Assembly: GCA_030295235.1 (NCBI GenBank)
Contig: AP026172.1
Location: 186,001-250,000, forward strand
Length of the DNA: 64,000 nucleotides
Source: Fistulifera solaris
Lineage: Eukaryota
Direction of reading: 5' to 3'
This document shows positions 31,239 to 56,068 of this stretch, one piece after another (the first letter of the stretch is position 1; each line of letters opens with the position of its first letter). The notes below the pieces were generated by a model that saw nothing but the letters and a program-made list of their open reading frames with translations, had not been told where the DNA came from and ran no database searches. The translations under genes were made by a program, and so were the position numbers.

Positions 31239-32882
31239 TTAGTTAGGAAAGGGAGGTGCAGCAGCTTCGGATGCAAAAACATGCTTTCCCTTAAAATGAT
31301 TTTTGTGAAAAGTAGGGTAGCAGGTCGTACATAAGTCGTAGTCAAAACAAGATACACACTTCCGAATAATTCCTTCGATACGCTTCGAGCAACCGTCACA
31401 ATGAGCTACTTCGCGGTAAGAAAAAGTAGACACATCGTCGCTGTTGCCGGACTTCAGAGGTGCCAGGGCACCTGGAAAAAGAAAACACTCGATTATGTGG
31501 AATCTTCACATCCTTCCAGTCTTCTATTAAGTGAATGTCGCATTTAGCATCCTCTTTCTTGGATGTCACGACCGACAAAAGTTCTCCTTCCGTTTTGTAT
31601 TTAATAACGTTGTTCGTTTCCTCACAAAAGAGTGACCGGACCAGAACGCGAATAATATCATCACAAAAGCCCAGCAAATAAGCATCAAAGACGTACTCCT
31701 CCCGAAAGTCTTTTTCGTCCTCTTGGTCTCCTTCATCTTGATTATCCGTCAAAATTTCTGGTAAAGGAGGATGAACTATGGAACGATTGATCAATATGCG
31801 AGGGATATCGGGGGGCAGATAACGGATCACCTTTGAAATGGGCGCACTTAACACGCATGAGAACTGGTTGAGCAACGCCGACGAAATGAACCAGCACTTC
31901 TACATGTAGGTCACTTACACCGATAGCGAGGTCCCGATTACAATTAATGCGTCCACTTTGTCATGATCGATTTCCAAAGCCCGACGAACATTCTCTCCCA
32001 ACGTTTCGCCAAAGAATGTAATCCCTGGTTTTAACACACCATTACAAGTCCGTGCTTTCCGCGTCACACCTCGGGTTCGTATACAATCACTTTCCTCGCT
32101 TTGACTGGGATTGGACCGCTTTCGTGATGAGCGTTCACGCGGACGTGCAGTTGTCTTAGGGGTCGAGTCGGGTAGGACAGATCGACATCGAGCTACGCGA
32201 CCAGCCAATACATCTTCTTCCATCTCCGACCGTGCTACCTTCTGCTTGCAAGCAAGACAAGTGGCCCATTCCAACGATCCGTGCGCATATACAATCTTTT
32301 TGGCAGAGACTCCCGCTTCTTGTTCGAGACCGTCAATGTTTTGTGTGTAACAACGCAATAAGCGCTTTTGCTGTTCCAGCAAAACTAAGAGCTTGTGAGA
32401 GTCACTCGGTCGGGCCCGATGCCGCTTGCGATCTTTCGCCGATTCATTATTACTATCACAATTTGTGAAATAGATACTTTTTGCAAATTTGTAGAACGGT
32501 ACAGGATCTTCTTGGAAGAAATGGGAATCAAAGAGGTCCTCCGGGCAAGATAATCCTAGCTTCTGTGTAGTTAATGATAGAAGAATGCTAGGTTAGTATC
32601 AAATGAATGGTATGCCGAAGCAAAACGGAGGTATGCGCTCACCTCCATGTCCAACGTTTCATAAATTCCGATATCTTTCGATCGGAAGTCGGGTATTCCG
32701 CTGCTCACACTGATCCCTGCTCCAGTAATAACCACAATATTCTTTCGCCCTTCAAGCAGTTTTGAGACACCAGCCATTCCGGACTCAAAGTTTTCTTCCT
32801 TTTGATTCTCGAAGAGAGAAAAGGGGGGTTGGGAAGGTAACTTCGGGCGAGCTCCAACACGGTTCTTCCCCGAGGAGCTCAT
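31239..32882 (-). CDS. NAD-dependent deacetylase, class I (SIRT1/Sir2-like), with a C-terminal ZZ-type zinc finger
   Basis: [44 protein letters not shown] and LLGFCD. Introns 32563-32642 and 31848-31918. [20 protein letters not shown] follows an apparent indel ~31480. Confidence 0.9.
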
Positions 32883-33049: not shown

Positions 33050-33560
33050 TAGGATTTCTGGAACGTACACAGCATTTCTGTACTACGAATGAACGGAAAC
33101 AAAGTATACAGAATTTTTGTATGCTCACAGTGACCGTTTCCAGAATTTCTGGATCGTAAACAAAGTTTCTTTATTACCGAAAACACAGACGGATGCATCA
33201 TACAGAATTTCCGTATTTTTTAATAATGTATTCCACAGATTTTCTGTGAACGCATAGACACATCACAGAAACTTATCTATCCTTGTCCTGAATAATGTGG
33301 TGCACAGATTTTCTCTGGAAGCACTGACAAATACGTAGTAACATACAGAATTTCGGTGTTTCTGAAAATGATCTCTCAGATTTTCTGGTAACGCAAATCA
33401 CAGAATTTCCGTGAGTCTGAAAATGCATCCCCAGAATTTCTGGGAATGCAAAGACCCACTACCCACAGAATTTCCGTGTATCTGAAAATGCGCGTCTCTG
33501 ATCACCTATCACTTATCAGTGATCAGACAGAGACACATTACCCACAGAATTTCCGTGTGT
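33050..33560. repeat. Degenerate array of quasi-palindromic cores (A/C)CAGAATTTC(T/C)G
   Basis: About 14 recognisable copies (e.g. 33108, 33140, 33202, 33235, 33345, 33400, 33431, 33465, 33545). The core is the reverse complement of that in the 51.2-52.2 kb array. Confidence 0.8.
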
Positions 33561-33793
33561 TTGACATTGCCCGCCAGGCTAAATCGGTTACTTGCACAGG
33601 ATTTCCATGCGCCGCTTCGCTCGCTCCTTTTTCTCGCAATTTATCTTGCTCATTGCTTTTCCTTTCATTTGAAAACACTTATCTTTTCAGAGTACGTCAA
33701 ACCAGGAGCAGTAGGCGAGGTGCGATTTTATGCTTAGGCAAATGGGCAAACTGTTTAGCTAACGGCGATACTTTTCATGAAGAAAGATTGAAG

Positions 33794-34093
33794 ATGGTCC
33801 TCGAAAATGAAAGCGTCGACAACAATTCGGCTTCGAGATTAGTGGAATCCCAAACTGAGAAAAACGAACGTAACGTTCGAGCCGGTGGGATGTCGGATGA
33901 GTCCAAATTGCGGTTAATGAACGACTATGCGCCTCTTACCGCTCTACTCCGTCAGCTCGATCAACAAGTATCTACATTCACAGTGCAGATGGAGCGCTTT
34001 GCCTACAAAGCTGCTCCAAGTTATGAAGGACTTGCCGAAAAATGGACGCAAGAAGCGGGTCTTTCAAACGGGGACGATGGCGCATCTGCATGA
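33794..34093 (+). CDS. Small hypothetical helical/coiled-coil protein (~99 aa)
   Basis: The 3' part of ORF 33446-34093, from MVLENE, has protein-like amphipathic composition. The upstream part of that ORF runs through the repeat array and is probably non-coding. Confidence 0.45.
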   Translation: MVLENESVDNNSASRLVESQTEKNERNVRAGGMSDESKLRLMNDYAPLTALLRQLDQQVSTFTVQMERFAYKAAPSYEGLAEKWTQEAGLSNGDDGASA

Positions 34094-47356: not shown

Positions 47357-48035
47357 ACTCTTTTTCGCAGGAGTGGATTTCAGTCATGAGGCGCGAGGCA
47401 GATCTTTCCATCTTGTTTGCTTGACTTCTGAGTTACCGTTACCAGGTACTTGCAGCTTGCTTAAATGATAATCTTCTTTAGTTGACAATAATTTTCCTAA
47501 GGTTCCTTGACATATGCGACGCACCGATCGTTACTTTGCGTCAAAGTTTCTCCCAATCCGAGGTACTGTAGGCCATAGTGTAAGCGACCTTCTGTGTGAC
47601 TGGATAGCAGTCACGAGTCATGTGATTCGAGTCCAAGAGATCGTTTGCTGTGTTGCCTTTTTTGTTTGTTTGACTTATACCAGGTAGACTAAATAACTCT
47701 TTTTCGCAGGAGTGGATTTCAGTCATGAGGCGCGAGGCAGATCTTTCCATCTTGTTTGCTTGACTTCTGAGTTACCGTTACCAGGTACTTGCAGCTTGCT
47801 TAAATGATAATCTTCTTTAGTTGACAATAATTTTCCTAAGGTTCCTTGACATATGCGACGCACCGATCGTTACTTTGCGTCAAAGTTTCTCCCAATCCGA
47901 GGTACTGTAGGCCATAGTGTAAGCGACCTTCTGTGTGACTGGATAGCAGTCACGAGTCATGTGATTCGAGTCCAAGAGATCGTTTGCTGTGTTGCCATTT
48001 TGTTTGTTTGATTTGCCAGGTACCTGGTAGACTAG
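47357..48035. repeat. Tandem direct duplication with a 339-bp period
   Basis: By eye, 47357-47657 is identical to 47696-47996. The ends (47658-47695 vs 47997-48039) are similar but diverged. Confidence 0.95.
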
Positions 48036-49193: not shown

Positions 49194-49580
49194 GATGAAC
49201 AACTGTGTTTGTAACTCGGATGAATTTCACAAAACAATTGCCGAAAGGTGATGAAAGCTGAACAAGAACGCCAGGAACGCACGGGGCGGTCGATTTCCTT
49301 TTTAGTAAACCGAAAAGTGATTCTGCGTCTGGCCTTGTATACGGCAGCCAGACTAATTCGGGAATAAATATTGTTACGTGATTCCGCCAACACGTACGAC
49401 GGACAAAAGATCGCACCTCCCGTACTTGTTCAACTTGAGTATCTTACGTTATGCTGACGATTGGCTGTTTGGACTGCGAGGAAAAGATTTGCAAGTCAAC
49501 TTTGCAACCAGCAGCAAACGACCGGTCTCTCTCTCTCGTTGCGTGTTCAATCAAACCTGTGTTTACCTTTCTGAAAGACC

Positions 49581-50171
49581 ATGAAGTTCTATACTCTTCT
49601 CGCTCTTCTCGGCTCTGCCGCTGCTTTCGCTCCGGCTTCTCAAACAAAGTCATCCAGCACTGTCTTGTCGGCTTGGAAAGATGATGCCGTAGTCGGAAAG
49701 ACCGCCCCGGCGGGTTATTTTGACCCCTTGGGCTTGTCAAAGAACAAGAGCGACAAAACTATGGCTTACTACCGTGAAGCAGAATTGAAAAACGGTCGTG
49801 TTGCCATGGCGGCTTGCTTGGGCTGGTACATTACCGCCGGAGGAACTCACCCAGCCTTTGGTGGTTCTCTTTCCGATGATCCTTTGAAAGCTGCCGGTGA
49901 ACTTTCTTTCGTTGGATGGTTGCAATTCATTTTTGGATGCGGTGTCATTGAATTCTTGGGTGAGAAGATCAAGGAACGTCCAGGATATGTCCCCGGAGAT
50001 ATTCTTGGCGCCAGCTTCTGGGTTGACAACAGCGATGAGGGTTGGGTCATGTACCAAAACAAGGAGCTCAACAACGGTCGCCTTGCTATGCTTGCCTTTG
50101 TTGGTATCCTCACTCAGGATATCCTGTACGGAAACTATGGAGATATGATCTTCAAGCCTTTGGTGAAATAA
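49581..50171 (+). CDS. Light-harvesting fucoxanthin-chlorophyll a/c-binding protein (LHC family)
   Basis: AAAF-AP presequence, FDPLGL, REAELKNGRVAM and KELNNGRLAM. Single exon. Confidence 0.95.
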   Translation: MKFYTLLALLGSAAAFAPASQTKSSSTVLSAWKDDAVVGKTAPAGYFDPLGLSKNKSDKTMAYYREAELKNGRVAMAACLGWYITAGGTHPAFGGSLSDDPLKAAGELSFVGWLQFIFGCGVIEFLGEKIKERPGYVPGDILGASFWVDNSDEGWVMYQNKELNNGRLAMLAFVGILTQDILYGNYGDMIFKPLVK

Positions 50172-50371
50172 ACTGATATTTACTTATGATCCTGTCGTGA
50201 TGGTAAATTGATTCTGTTTACTAGAAGGATATAATACACCTGCTCGCTGGAGCTAGGACCCTAAATACAAGCTGCGCTGTGTTGTGTAATACGCTAGAAT
50301 CTAGATGAAACAATTCTCGCACTTTGTAAACCGTGAGGGTGGGTACGACTTCCAGCAGAAACGCCTTCCGA

Positions 50372-51138
50372 TCATTGTATCTCAGCCGTTCCGCGTGTAG
50401 CATCTTGGAGTTCCTCCCGCAGTCGCACTTCATTTTCTTTTTCGCATGTGATGTCGATCGACAAGGTTCCGTCCACTCCATACTCGTCATTCGATGTTTG
50501 TCCTCCGCATTTGGCTGCCAATTCGTAGACAACTCCTACGAAGCTGGCTGGCACTTTGACATGCACTGTGATTTTGGGTGTGAGGACTAGGATGGGCGCT
50601 TCACGCAACGTTTGTCGCGCCGATGCTCCGTACGCTCGAATCAATCCACCGGCGCCGAGTTTGACACCACCAAAGTAGCGCACGACGATACAGATTGTAT
50701 CCGACAAGAATTCTCCCTGAATGGCACCCAGAATCGGTAGTCCGGCCGTGCCCGTCGGTTCACCGTCATCCGAACATCGCTCCGTCACAGGATCGGTACC
50801 TCCACGATAACCATAACACCAATGTCGTGCTTTGGGGTGTTCTTTTTGATGTGCTCTAAATATTTTTGTGCTTCTGCCCACGAGTCGACGTGACTCGCAT
50901 ACGCCAGAAACCGACTTTTCTTCATTTCGTATTCGGTTACACGTGATCCTGGTGCCAGAGTTCGTATCTCCTCCGTTTTGGACATAAAGAACCGCCGCTG
51001 TCGTCGTGCGAGGCTGCTATAACTCCTTGGACGACCGGTTGAGAAGGCGACAAGGATTGTCATTTGGGTGCTCCAGCATAACATTCCCCAAAGAGTGACG
51101 CCAGCGAATATGCGATTGTTATAAACGTTATAAATCAT
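50372..51138 (-). CDS. IMPACT/YigZ family protein
   Basis: KKSRFLA, HPKARHWCY, SDDGEPTGTAG.PIL and VVRYFGGVKLGAGGLIRAY. Indel in an A-run ~50845. Confidence 0.9.
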
Positions 51139-51244
51139 ACTATTCTTGTCATGGGTTCACGTAATCTTAAGTTTCGCGTCAGTCGAGTACTTGAAATCAG
51201 ATTTTTATTGTTGTTCAAATGATTATGTTGTTGTTGTCGTCGTC

Positions 51245-52212
51245 GTTCCAGAAATTCTGGAACGATTAGTTTGTGAACGTTCCAGAAATTCTGGAATAAG
51301 GTGTATGGGTCATACAGAAATTCTGCTGTAGATCCAGAAATTCAGGACCAGGTGTGTTTTGAATCATACAGAAATTCTGTTTTAGGTCCAGAAATTCTGG
51401 ACCAATTCTGGATTCTGGACCATCGGTGTTGGCGATCATAGAGAAAGTTTGTGGTCGTTCCAGAAATTCTGGACCATCGTTGTTTGCGATGATACAGAAA
51501 TTCTGTGGTATTCCCAGAAATTCTGGAGTAAGGTGAATGGGTCATACAGAGATTCTGGAATCGGATTTTGGGTCATAGAGAAATTTGGTGTAGGGTCTAG
51601 AAATTCTTGAATAAAGTGATACGGGTAGTACAAAAATTCTGTGTATCGTCCAGAAAATCTGCAATCGATGTTTTGGGGTTTTGGGTCGTACAAAAGATCT
51701 GTGGACGTTCCCAAAAATCTGGAATTTGATTTTGGGTCAACCTGAAGATCGGTGGACGTTCCAGAAATTCCGGAATTGATGTTTTTGGACGTACAGATGA
51801 TCTGTGTAATGTCCAGGAAATCTGGAATCGAATTTTGGGTCAAACGTAGATTCGAAGTTACGTCTAGAAAATCTGGAATCGGATTTTTGGTCATACAAAA
51901 GATCTGTGGACGTACCGGAAAATCTGGAATTTGATTTTGGGTCAAACTTAATAAAATTGGTGCACTGTCCAGAAATTCTGGAGTTGATGTTTTTGGTTAT
52001 ACAGAAATTCTGTGTATCGTCCTGAAAATCTGGAATCGGTTTTCGGGTCATGCAAAAGACCTGTGGGCGTCCCAGAAATTCTGGAATCGAATATTGGGTC
52101 ATACAAAAGATCTGTGTGCGTTCCAGAAATTCAGGAAACGTTGTTCGTCGGCTAAACAGGAAATTTCCAGAATTTCCGAAGAAGGTGTGTTTGATGCTAC
52201 AGAAAATCTGTG
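51245..52212. repeat. Degenerate ~52-bp tandem array; each unit holds two quasi-palindromic cores (CCAGAAATTCTGG and ACAGAAATTCTGT)
   Basis: About 35 cores counted by eye. A-type e.g. 51248, 51282, 51388, 51460, 51514, 51761, 51969, 52072; B-type e.g. 51368, 51494, 51630, 52001. B-to-A spacing is ~20 bp and A-to-B ~31-34 bp. Confidence 0.92.
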
Positions 52213-52496
52213 GATTAATCATCATTCGGGACGTTACCTGTTACTCAAATGTCTGAACAATCACAATCAGCATACTTATAATTATATTGTACTAATGAAA
52301 CGCATACCGGTACCGGTACACGGGTAAAGAAAACATCGCCAAAAGAAAAACACGACGAAAAACAACGCCACGCTTATTGTTCTCGCCATTGTGGCTGCAT
52401 TTACAGTATTTTATTTGCATTATTTGTTTCTCGTCGTTCTATCACTCAAAGTCATTCCTACAACCACGGCGACAACGCTTGTCACCCGCTTTTACA

Positions 52497-54636
52497 ATGA
52501 ATGAAGAAGGAGAAGCATCACCTTCGCCCGAGGCGACTACACGCACCACACCTCGCGATGCATTGTCTTCACCAAAAGAACAAGCCACTGTTGACGACTT
52601 TCTGTACGGCATCTCATCATTCGATGCGATAGTGAAACCTGTCTTTGTTACAATGATCTTGGCGGCTCTTTCTTCTGTGTACGTTAGTACCCCCGAGTCG
52701 AGACAAGAAGGCGAAGAATCACTCTCGAAGTCTTACACAGTCTTACAAGGATCCGAAGATGACACGGACGGCCAAAAGCTGGGACAGAGTCTCGTGAACG
52801 GTCTTGTCATTGTACTGGTCATTACTGTCATGACCTTTGTGATTGTACTGTTGTACAAATATCGATGCATGAAACTTTTGATCGGATACATGATTGTCGC
52901 CATTACGAGTTTACTCGGTTTCGTCAGCTCGGAAATGTTTACTATTGCCATTGAACGCTATTCACTGAAGATTGATCGCGCCTCGTACGCCATCACCATT
53001 TATAACTTTGCCTTGGTCGGAACAATATCACTCTTTTTTTGGTCGAGGTATACCGGCTTACATTTCACAATGCTACTTGATCGCCATTTCAGTCATTGTC
53101 GCTTGGCAATTGTCCCATTTTGATCCGTGGACTGGTAAGTTCGAGTTGATTATAAAACATCTTGTGTTTTATGCACACGATCGCACTCACTGATACATCT
53201 CCTCTGTTGGATCTCTGTTGGATATAGCCTGGGTACTCCTGATCTTATTAGCATTGTACGATCTGTTTGCTGTTTTGTCCCCATGTGGGCCATTGAAAGC
53301 GCTGGTGAATTTGATGAGTCAGTCCGATGCGCCACATTTACCTGGGTTACTATACGAAGCGAATTTAAAGGTGGGACAACAGCAGCAGCAACAACAGCAA
53401 ACACAAGCGCAAACGCAAACTCAACAACTCGCTCCAGTATCCGATCATATTGCGAAGTCGACGTCAACCAGAAATGAAAGTAATACGACAACAGATGACA
53501 AAGTTCAATATCCAACAATTCCCATTCAGAATATGTCAAACACACGCACCCATAACTTTGCAAGTACTACGATGACCAATGTTTCGTTTTCGAATGAAGA
53601 TGTCTCCGAGGAAAAGAAGTCAGAGGATGTGGTGGAGGATGGCAATGTCGAACACGGGAAACGTTTTTGTGGAACGATCCCTTTGGGATTGGCAATCCGC
53701 TGCCAAGTGCCACTTGCGAATGGACAAGTGAACACAGCGGATGCGTTCAACGCTGAGGAATTGCAACAACCCATAGAGGTGATTTTTTCAGAGAATGGAC
53801 CTTTCATAACCCTCCACGATCGACAGTCCGATGGGGAGCCGCTTCGATACAATGTACTTGATTCCGACAACAATTTGCTGAAAGTTGTGTTTGTTGATGA
53901 CCATGGGCGAGTCATGGAAGATCGACGTCACTTGCGGCAAACGGGGTCGATCCCATTGGCGATTGCGAAGCTCAACAAACTCCGTTTCGTACATGGACCT
54001 CAACCTAGCTGGATCCGACGAGCCGAACATCCTACCGACGACAATATCCCGGGCGACACTTGGACATCAGAGGAACTACAACGTGACGTTGAGGTCTTCT
54101 TCCCCAAAGGATGGCAAATCGTACGACACGTGGAGCAGCGAGAAAATGAGGCCACTCGGTATGCCGTAATTAAACCGGATGGCAGTATTAAACGGATTCT
54201 GTTCGTGAGCAACGAGGGGAAAGTATTCGAGGATCGAAGAGATAAGAATAAAAAAGACGACAGTGATCAGAAAGAAGGGAGAGGCTCGATTCGATTGGGT
54301 CTGGGTGACTTCATTTTTTATTCTATTCTTGTTTCCAAAGCAGCGCACTACAGCTTTACAACCTTTGCGGCTTGTGTACCAGCTATTCTCATTGGATTGG
54401 CGCTCACACTAGGCATTTTGGCTTATCATGGGCAAGCCTTACCAGCCTTACCTATTTCAATTTTCCTCGGTGTTACCTTCTACTTCATAACACGGTATTC
54501 CGTGCAACCCTGGTAAGTTCCTTGCAGATGTTGATCATGTCTTGTCATCCAGTCTTATAGTTTCTCATATTGCTGGTTTTTATCCGTTGATGTCCATAGG
54601 GTCGAAGATGTCTTCATTCAGGCCTTGTATGTCTGA
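52497..54636 (+). CDS. PSEN: Presenilin (GxGD aspartyl intramembrane protease, gamma-secretase catalytic subunit)
   Basis: [35 protein letters not shown] and PALPISI. Introns ~53135-53228 and 54513-54599. T-run indel ~53040. Confidence 0.95.
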
Positions 54637-55117
54637 CAGCATCCGTCGTTGCTTACATTTAAGAAACCCTAGATGAAACATAGAGTGCCCCGAGATACCT
54701 CAACTCTTTAAAAAATATGATTGAGCTGAAAAACACGACGGACAATGACGTGACGCTTTGCTAATTGTTAGGCTGATAGAAATGCTTTCGGGGCAGGTGT
54801 AACTCGTAAAATCAAATGCAACTTGGTGAAAGCTGAGAAGCAAGTTAGCACCAACAATAACCTAATCAACGGTATAACGATCCGAAGTAGTAGGCGAGTA
54901 ATCCGTGCAAAAAATAGCCTATTTAGGTTTTGGCTTGGTCGTTTTTAGGTGACACTTTTCAATGTAGCTCATGACTGAATTTTAGTCGTGGACAATAGTT
55001 GCATACACTTTGGACCATAGTAATTTTGCAATGCGACCCGAGACCGCAGACGATGATGATGATTGTTTTCTGATTGTTTTCACAACATGCGATGATGGTA
55101 TGAACAATGCCATTGTC

Positions 55118-56068
55118 ATGTCAGAAGGGTATGCGTCTCGATTAAAAGATTATCCCAACAAGGGGGAAGTGCGGGCTCCCGGAAATGCTCGATACCCGTC
55201 GGAGCTTGACGCAAAGGTGAAAAAACTCGCCCAACTCATCGAAGCTTCGAAGCGCGTAGTCGTCTTAACTGGAGCCGGAATCAGCACCAGCTGTGGTATT
55301 CCTGATTTTCGTGGTCCCAATGGAATATGGACGATCGAACAGAAAGAACAAAAGACGGCAAAGAGAAGAAAAATGACAAAAGACAAAGTAGTATCCACCG
55401 CTTCGTCGTCGTCAACGAGCCAGGAGTCCATGAAACGGCCGAGGCAGCCAGTGTTAATGGACTTTTCTCAGGCTAAGCCGTCTCGTACACACAAAATCAT
55501 CACAAAACTAGTAAACACGGGTCATATCCACTTTTGCATCACACAAAATGTCGATGGGTTGCATCGAAGATCTGGTCTGAGCAGAGGAAAGCATGCCGTG
55601 TTGCACGGATGTGTCTTTACAGAAAAGTGCGAAGATTGTGGAGCCGAGCATTTTCGTGACAGTGATGTCGGTGGGATGAGTTTCCAAAAGACAGGAAGAC
55701 AATGCGACAACTGTGGGGGCGATTTACGAGATACGCTTTTGGATTGGGAGGATCCGCTTCCGGAGGATGACTTTGCGAAGGCTACGGAAGAATGTGAAAC
55801 CGCTGATCTTGTAATATGTTTGGGAACGTCATTGCGGATTGAACCTGCTGGAAGTCTTCCTACTTATGCAAGGAAATTTGTGATTATAAACATGCAAGAA
55901 ACCCCGTACGATTCTCAGGCGGATCTTGTCATTCGGGGCCGCGTTGATGATGTCATGGATGAAGTCATGAAGTTGCTAGGTTTTGGGAATTGGGAAGAGT
56001 TTGATGTACCGCCACCCATTGAGCGCATCTTTCTTCTTTCAAAGGGTGATACCAAGAGTCCTGAATGA
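55118..56068 (+). CDS. NAD-dependent deacetylase, class IV (SIRT6/SRT1-like)
   Basis: N-terminus MSEGYASRLKDYPNKG, then GAGISTSCGIPDFRGPNGIWT, TQNVDGLH, LRDTLLDWED and LGTSLRIEPA. Confidence 0.92.
   Translation: MSEGYASRLKDYPNKGEVRAPGNARYPSELDAKVKKLAQLIEASKRVVVLTGAGISTSCGIPDFRGPNGIWTIEQKEQKTAKRRKMTKDKVVSTASSSSTSQESMKRPRQPVLMDFSQAKPSRTHKIITKLVNTGHIHFCITQNVDGLHRRSGLSRGKHAVLHGCVFTEKCEDCGAEHFRDSDVGGMSFQKTGRQCDNCGGDLRDTLLDWEDPLPEDDFAKATEECETADLVICLGTSLRIEPAGSLPTYARKFVIINMQETPYDSQADLVIRGRVDDVMDEVMKLLGFGNWEEFDVPPPIERIFLLSKGDTKSPE

Follow-up and report, generated by a model that had tools for sequence, protein, structure and literature searches.

The spacer between an IMPACT-family gene and a presenilin gene of the diatom Fistulifera solaris contains a tandem array of short palindromic boxes, here referred to as array A. 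We analyzed it within a 64,000-nucleotide stretch of the genome (contig AP026172.1 of assembly GCA_030295235.1, positions 186,001 to 250,000 of the forward strand), which we call the window and whose own numbering is used throughout. Array A is probably one locus of a lineage-specific, multicopy, noncoding family of the satellite or minisatellite type with a unit of ~52 bp. It combines the properties by which a satellite is recognized, namely, head-to-tail units, several loci, a higher-order repeat, and noncoding sequence. An earlier note on this DNA had proposed that the array is a multivalent platform for a dimeric or oligomeric protein such as a heat shock factor (HSF). Part of that proposal stands, in that the boxes appear to have been under old constraint and their 20-bp spacing is fixed, but the local decay of the boxes, the dispersal of the family, and the lack of canonical heat shock elements beyond chance do not favor it.

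Architecture of array A and its family

Array A (51245-52215) was found where the earlier note had placed it. It is 971 bp long within a spacer of 1.36 to 1.51 kb, and in a unit alignment it resolves into ~18 head-to-tail units of ~52 bp each. Its G+C content is 40.2%, compared to 46.1% for the whole window. Each unit carries one CCAGAAATTCTGG-type and one ACAGAAATTCTGT-type box, spaced 20 bp and then 31 to 34 bp apart. Both boxes are built on CAGAA-A-TTCTG, which is flanked by C..G in the B box (tCCAGAAATTCTGGa) and by A..T in the A box (atACAGAAATTCTGTg). With up to one mismatch, the 11-mer CAGAAATTCTG matched the window 45 times on both strands compared to an expectation of 2.17, and none of 100 shuffled sequences reached 45. 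On the plus strand of array A, it occurs 11 times exactly, 18 times with up to one mismatch, 24 times with up to two, and 32 times with up to three. One of these 32 cores, at 51400, belongs to a micro-duplication and overlaps a neighboring core, and the remaining 31 were analyzed. The number of copies had been put at about 35, which holds only if degenerate copies are counted (31 cores at up to three mismatches) and not for the units, of which there are ~18. Of the 31 cores, 16 are flanked by C..G, 11 by A..T, and 4 by other combinations, as expected from the two alternating box types that had been described. Exact copies of the boxes are fewer: CCAGAAATTCTGG occurs seven times, ACAGAAATTCTGT three times, and the 17-mer TTCCAGAAATTCTGGAA twice. 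The alternation of ~20 bp and ~31 to 34 bp was likewise borne out, since 11 of the 30 center-to-center distances are 20 bp and 12 are 31 to 34 bp. One distance is 40 bp and one is 44 bp, while the remaining five are 51 to 54 bp, reflecting the loss of an intermediate core. Every A-to-B step is exactly 20 bp (11/11).

Tandem Repeats Finder, which had been suggested as a check, recovered periods of 54, 51, and 208 bp. The 54-bp period covers 51412-51527 (85% matches) and the 51-bp period covers 51679-52137 (8.9 copies, 68% matches), while a period of 208 bp fits the latter span better, with 78% matches. These 208 bp correspond to a four-unit higher-order repeat, in which unit types recur every four units with 79 to 88% identity. 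The asymmetric box variants CAAAAGATCTG and CAGAAAATCTG recur through it, and approximately two thirds of the array has degenerate, asymmetric boxes. The same small set of linker types reappears along the array, and the length of the unit jitters, with units of 51 to 54, 60, 72, and 83 bp. The 7-bp micro-duplication in the left part of the array is a local slippage event.

Array A is not the only member of its family in the window. A profile of its 18 units recovered a second, diverged array (array B) at 33108-33444 on the minus strand (best match, 33153-33108; 28.8 bits; E = 2.5e-8), and beyond arrays A and B the profile found nothing else convincing in the 64-kb window. The part of array B nearest the SIR2 gene (33050-33215) retains the 20/32-bp layout and has linkers that are recognizably like those of array A (tgtacgttc versus tggacgttc; gaaacgg...cata versus gaatcgg...cata). 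The distal part has a spacing of 24-34/31 bp, ACGGAAATTCTGT boxes (a changed A box), and CATTTTCAGA linkers. Array B is also split between two A boxes by an imperfect inverted repeat at 33489-33530 (9-bp arms tctgatcac / gtgatcaga and an GATAAGTGATAG-like center), which is possibly a small insertion or footprint.

The family extends well beyond the window. We aligned contigs from a sequencing run of the same organism (X1) and from a metagenome containing a close relative (X2) to positions 49400-54600. In X1, 206 of the 337 aligned contigs fit only partly. Summed contig depths, which are not copy numbers, were 90 to 1273 in the bins of array A compared to 18 to 59 in its flanks for X1 and 54 to 837 compared to 3 to 28 for X2. 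This pile-up of contigs indicates that there are many look-alike stretches elsewhere, and contigs from these other copies accumulate most on the left sub-array (51245-51593). The inserts between contig joints have the order of array A itself, with a B box, a linker of ~18 to 20 nt, an A box, and a short linker. Array A therefore appears to be one locus of a multicopy dispersed family and not a device of the IMPACT/presenilin promoter.

Array A has no evident coding or RNA function. Open reading frames of 169 and 162 amino acids traverse it, but a coding reading was rejected because the 169-amino-acid frame has no relative (70 candidates scored) and the period is not divisible by 3. Rfam gave no match at the gathering score between 32500 and 53000 and so no curated RNA family.

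Old and recent divergence of boxes and linkers

The earlier note had claimed that the cores are conserved while the linkers drift, and the comparison of boxes to linkers upheld this. Averaged per column, pairwise identity falls from 0.84 in the B box to 0.69 in the A box and 0.55 in the linkers (Mann-Whitney, P = 6.6e-5). Across all units, 65 of 457 box positions (14.2%) deviate from the consensus, compared to 134 of 445 linker positions (30.1%; Fisher, P = 9e-9). Decay of CpG in the linkers was considered as the cause of this contrast and accounts for only part of it, given that the contrast persists when the four CpG columns are removed (14.2% for boxes versus 27.3% for linkers; P = 3.6e-6).

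The informative test is the one that splits old from recent divergence. Between the six unit types (15 nonindependent comparisons), boxes differ at 20.5% and linkers at 42% of positions. In six independent pairs of nearest units, the corresponding values are 23/156 (15%) and 34/153 (22%), a difference that is not significant (P = 0.11). The four nearest pairs in the right part of the array gave 16/104 for boxes and 21/101 for linkers (P = 0.37), and four pairs strictly four units apart gave 24/104 and 25/101 (P = 0.87). Considering that nearest pairs are products of recent duplication and lack a significant contrast, the boxes seem to have decayed nearly as fast as the linkers once the local amplification had taken place. 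The conservation of boxes over linkers thus appears to be real and mostly an old signal.

For the five inner arm pairs of all recognizable boxes in both arrays, we found 53 changes in one arm, 1 compensated change, and 1 double change that was noncomplementary. Folded as single-stranded DNA, the extended 23-nt first box reaches -9.7 kcal/mol, while an A box reaches -2.0 kcal/mol and a unit from the right part folds no better than its shuffles (z = -1.3). Because the other tested units fold weakly and compensation is nearly absent, selection for hairpins or cruciforms is not supported. As a general property of the array it was rejected, with only the best B boxes folding well and 1 of the 55 changed arm pairs being compensated. 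Position ±6, which distinguishes the two box types (C..G versus A..T), is complementary in 27 of 31 boxes of array A and 14 of 16 of array B, and the A boxes of array B are also complementary at ±7, with C..G in 7 of the 16 boxes. This pattern, the one notable symmetric feature, comes down to one or two changes in an ancestor that were passed on as units were copied, and it weighs little.

Helical phasing was a central element of the earlier proposal. When periods of 9 to 12 bp were scanned, the phase coherence of the 31 box centers peaked at 10.4 bp (R = 0.53), and the 30 distances have a mean offset from whole turns of 0.11 turn at 10.5 bp per turn. An enumeration of spacing pairs showed that in ~3.4% of them both spacings would lie no more than 0.1 turn from an integral number of turns. 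Because the units were copied from each other, these figures contain just two independent spacing quantities. The 24-bp spacing of distal array B amounts to 2.3 turns and breaks the phasing, which the family as a whole therefore does not share. In array A the phasing is genuine, with its 10.4-bp peak and fixed 20-bp spacing, but the claim does not extend to distal array B, and the phasing is weak evidence of design.

Explanations for the array

We favor a dispersed satellite-type family, one copy of which would have lodged in a permissive spacer between two head-to-head genes. The array would have grown and shrunk by replication slippage and unequal exchange, as suggested by the 208-bp higher-order repeat, the recurring linker types, and the 7-bp micro-duplication. 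The boxes are the slowest-evolving part across the old unit types and between arrays A and B, which suggests that the family as a whole has been under constraint. The source of this constraint would most likely be a dimeric DNA-binding protein that recognizes the boxes, or else a process that spreads the family by recognizing them. Since the boxes now decay about as fast as the linkers, array A is not evidently maintained as a platform for the IMPACT/presenilin promoters.

Several observations weigh against this reading. The contrast between boxes and linkers is strong enough that a neutral satellite is insufficient to explain it, and deviations in the left sub-array number 1/78 for the B box compared to 49/143 for the linkers, although unit boundaries were set on the boxes, which possibly inflates their conservation, and units are not independent. 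The nearest-pair test is small and leans in the same direction (15% versus 22%), so weak ongoing constraint on the boxes is compatible with it. The 20-bp spacing is invariant, and the spacings lie near whole helical turns. Finally, both arrays in the window are located between head-to-head genes, as are approximately 9 of 29 spacers on a crude map of open reading frames; a preference for divergent promoters, by function or insertion bias, is possible.

Jeffreys-type hypervariable minisatellites likewise form dispersed arrays whose units have a short conserved core in common but otherwise differ in sequence and length; the diatom core is distinct in being an A/T-rich palindrome of which each unit holds two alternating versions. 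In the literature, the closest parallels to array A are euchromatic satellite arrays near genes and satellites with short dyad symmetries. The TCAST1 tandem-repeat family of Tribolium castaneum is described as forming short euchromatic arrays dispersed near genes (PMC3411249, PMC4537270, PMC10048060). Satellites of this type resemble the diatom family in their short gene-proximal arrays at many places, uneven conservation along the unit, and higher-order repeats. Their monomers are far longer than the ~52-bp diatom unit (a monomer of ~170 bp is given as typical of satellites; PMC4675708), and the diatom family is not known to form a large heterochromatic block. Satellites with short (<10 bp) dyad symmetries have been reported by Kasinathan and Henikoff (2018, PMC5889037). 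Array A is similar in having short dyads in each unit that could form small hairpins or cruciforms, with the best copy at -9.7 kcal/mol. It differs in that it is not centromeric by present evidence, most units fold weakly, and symmetry is not restored after mutation. Nothing relevant was found in the literature on diatom intergenic minisatellites, and the examined parts of the F. solaris assembly preprint (bioRxiv 10.1101/2021.11.10.468027) do not mention a 52-bp repeat, although its supplements could bear on this.

A heat shock element is defined by at least three contiguous inverted nGAAn units in a 5-bp register. The B box reads TTC-ca-GAA-a-TTC-tg-GAA, with two TTCnnGAA pairs around a GAAnTTC center, but its middle step of 4 nt, instead of 5, breaks the canonical three-unit register. 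The canonical element TTCNNGAANNTTC has two matches on both strands of the window, both in array A, compared to 1.49 expected, and 42 of 100 shuffles reach two. Canonical three-unit heat shock elements are at chance level, and the reading of the array as canonical heat shock elements did not hold up. The A boxes have no outer TTC/GAA triplets, and the gap positions (CA/TG) are conserved as well as the triplets. In protein-binding arrays, HSF-family proteins of the stramenopile Phytophthora infestans are reported to prefer GAATTC, TTCNGAA, or TTCTAGAA and to accept ungapped, 1-nt-gapped, and 2-nt-gapped TTC/GAA dimers, most of them lacking the trimerization coil (PMC11267843). Array A resembles these sites in its inverted TTC/GAA triplets, which form two TTCnnGAA pairs in the B box, and differs from them in having no three-unit 5-bp run, A boxes that lack the outer triplets, and conserved gaps. 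The only diatom HSF binding set that we found, from CUT&Tag of PtHSF2, is described as having a telomere-like top motif (PMC11986044). An HSF-type protein remains a candidate reader of the boxes.

These observations bear on the proposal of a working multivalent platform, in which dimers or oligomers of a factor (e.g., of the diatom HSF type) on phased boxes would control or insulate the IMPACT and presenilin promoters. We consider such a platform unlikely. The conservation of boxes over linkers, the fixed 20-bp spacing with its 10.4-bp coherence peak, the gapped dimers (including TTCTAGAA) bound in P. infestans, and the position of both arrays in divergent promoters are all consistent with it, but the boxes are not significantly spared in recently duplicated units, degenerate asymmetric boxes amplified as a higher-order repeat occupy two thirds of the array, and one-arm changes have not been restored to symmetry (53, compared to 1 compensated). 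The heat-shock evidence also argues against it, from the chance-level canonical element and the composition of the A boxes and gaps to the telomere-like PtHSF2 motif. In addition, promoters elsewhere in the window have no excess of isolated boxes (2 matches lie outside the arrays versus ~2 expected), and distal array B, with its 24-bp spacing, is out of phase. A broader version would treat the 52-bp family as genome-wide, phased two-box pads, in which each box type binds a homodimer of a different paralogue and which preferentially mark divergent promoters; this too strikes us as improbable. The boxes would take the forms TTCCAGAA-A-TTCTGGAA and (C)ACAGAA-A-TTCTGT(G), and the candidate binder would be a lineage-expanded factor, for example, a coil-less HSF-type protein that accepts a 1-nt gap. 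The covariation of the flanks (C..G/T..A versus A..T/C..G) together with the invariant 20-bp spacing would then represent two dimers on one face of the helix, and the arrays would act as boundary or coregulation elements. Should the boxes prove to be genuine binding sites, a diatom-specific DNA-binding protein family would for the first time have a defined target discovered from sequence alone. The boxes could then also serve as a modular element for promoter or insulator engineering in a transformable diatom; F. solaris is reported to be transformable by conjugation (bioRxiv 10.1101/2021.11.10.468027). If they are not binding sites, array A cautions that an ordinary dispersed satellite can come to have uneven conservation along its unit, near-whole-turn spacing, and a place in a promoter.

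Short dyad motifs in direct order are typical of the subterminal regions of transposons. Array A might accordingly be a remnant or internal part of a nonautonomous DNA transposon (a foldback element, a miniature inverted-repeat transposable element, or a Helitron-like element), with boxes that were once transposase-binding subterminal repeats and a family spread by transposition. The likeness to the subterminal clusters of DNA transposons and foldback elements lies in several copies of a 10- to 15-bp motif with short and fairly regular spacing. The dispersal of the family fits this origin, as does the presence of the same 11-mer, two to three times per arm, in long foldback-like palindromes on metagenome contigs from other organisms (L014, L076, L019, and L034). 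We nonetheless regard it as doubtful, because the diatom array lacks terminal inverted repeats, shared flanks, and a transposase. Inverted matches around array A are limited to box-to-box matches and one 14-nt pair at 86%, and there are none around array B. The 500-bp flanks of the two arrays do not match each other, the two arrays differ in the unit phase at which they begin and stop, and the flanking open reading frames are ordinary host genes. Contigs from other copies have loose ends that do not match one another (agreement, ~0.5), which is expected for variable linkers and not for the fixed flank of an element. No target-site duplication was seen by eye at the edges of the arrays, and the ends of an element are undefined. 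The possibility raised in the earlier note that the array is the subterminal repeat of a DNA transposon thus found no support in bounding inverted repeats or shared flanks.

Two further explanations have little in their favor. The A/T tracts (AAATT) every 20 and 32 bp might form a curved or nucleosome-excluding spacer under selection for DNA structure, in keeping with spacings near two and three helical turns (mean offset, 0.11 turn; ~3.4% of spacing pairs within 0.1 turn in both values). This match is post hoc and involves two independent quantities only, and we hold the explanation to be very unlikely: the T4 tract in the long linker of the consensus is about half a turn out of phase, the jitter of the period (51 to 54, 60, 72, and 83 bp) holds long-range coherence to an R of 0.53, and distal array B breaks the phasing. 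That array A is a centromere or replication origin element of the chromosome, an option listed in the earlier note, is scarcely credible, with two arrays lying within 18 kb and many copies elsewhere, even though its G+C content is below that of the window (40% versus 46%). Three consensus motifs for centromeres or autonomously replicating sequences have been published for F. solaris (bioRxiv 10.1101/2021.11.10.468027) and, as given there, bear no relation to the unit, as judged by eye for motifs 1 and 2. For motif 3, a search with a 22-base part at up to three mismatches found nothing in the window.

The core motif elsewhere and the surroundings of array A

A scan of metagenomes for two exact cores 5 to 30 nt apart returned at least 118 loci. 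Among the loci listed, none matches the whole unit (best, 14.9 bits), and none holds both box types; for comparison, 18 of the 19 unit hits of array A itself score 23.7 to 46 bits, and its incomplete first unit scores 15.7 bits. The same scan of viral contigs returned 13 unrelated loci. Two control palindromic 11-mers of the same composition returned 22 and 91 viral loci, so the occurrence of the core elsewhere is not special by count. Metagenome contigs of animal type (G+C content, ~38%) share the 11-mer core in approximately ten types of tandem unit with periods of 27 to 39 bp and unrelated linkers (L005, L002, L037, L032, L061, L040, L010, L020, L099, L085, and others), and in these contigs the core is extended to tGCAGAAATTCTGCa or aTCAGAAATTCTGAa. 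Open reading frames on L005, L038, L012, and L056 encode fn3/DSCAM, TSP1, BTB, and GT8 domains. The animal-type arrays may parallel the diatom family in their conserved core and variable linkers, or they may be a look-elsewhere effect. The long foldback-like palindromes of L014 and L076 (~880-1500), L019, and L034 carry two to three CAGAAnTTCTG copies ~30 bp inside each arm. L014, L076, and L019 have a G+C content of ~45 to 48%, and L014 and L076, which come from different metagenomes, are identical over the part compared.

The coordinates of the arrays, their parts, and the adjacent genes are collected in Table 1.

Table 1. Positions of the arrays, their parts, and adjacent genes in the window
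Feature	Position	Strand	Description
Array A	51245..52215	+	Unit order: B box (tCCAGAAATTCTGGa), ~20-nt linker, A box (atACAGAAATTCTGTg), ~9-nt linker
Left sub-array	51245..51593	+	6 units, period ~54 bp; B box 1/78 deviations, linkers 49/143
Right sub-array	51594..52215	+	12 units of 51-54 bp; boxes degenerate, often nonpalindromic (CAAAAGATCTG, CAGAAAATCTG)
208-bp four-unit higher-order repeat	51679-52137	+	Within the right sub-array
7-bp micro-duplication ATTCTGG, 2.1 copies	51405..51419	+	Just 3' of a B box; unit stretched to 72 bp
Extended first box	51243..51265		Perfect 23-nt palindrome with 10-bp arms
Array B	33050..33607	-	Second, diverged array of the same family, opposite in orientation to array A
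SIR2-family gene	31915..32882	-	Head to head with an unannotated plus-strand open reading frame on the other side of array B, which ends at 34093
IMPACT-family gene	50372..51138	-	Pfam UPF0029, 4.6e-28
Presenilin gene	52497..54516	+	Two open reading frames; Pfam 9.7e-30 and 3.5e-58

Pfam matches confirmed that array A lies between head-to-head IMPACT-family and presenilin genes. The candidate start codons of the IMPACT-family gene, at 51138 or 50985, place it 107 to 260 bp from array A, and the first ATG of the presenilin gene is 282 bp past the end of the array. In a contig of an RNA-like run (X3), the presenilin intron at 53134-53226 is spliced out, and in a second such run (X4), there is a poly(A) tail at 50188. 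The two runs cover the FCP and presenilin genes and place nothing on array A, which says nothing on its expression. In the presenilin loop region (53218-54516), a poly-Q/CAG-CAA run and a module of ~30 residues, present twice, lie between the Pfam-matched ends.

Two X1 contigs of 584 and 1256 nt jointly span 50905-52715 with no other letters and one gap; X1 is possibly the sample of the window's own assembly, and agreement with its contigs is therefore not independent support. X1 also holds two forms of the flanking genes that are ~10% apart, with 28 other letters over 50905-51152 and 27 over 52465-52715, which fits a genome of two subgenomes. The second-form contigs part from the alignment at 51152 and 52465, on either side of array A, and X2 contigs leave it at 52465, the same point. 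At the listed variant places in 50573-51040 and from 53970 onward, X1 is split between the two forms, and the depth of X2 consists entirely of the second form's letter.

Elsewhere in the window, a 339-bp tandem unit is present in 2.0 copies with 98% identity at 47357-48022, just downstream of the gene for ribosomal protein S3Ae, and looks like a young duplication. A sirtuin is encoded at 55031-56065, and its named relatives are from raphid pennate diatoms.

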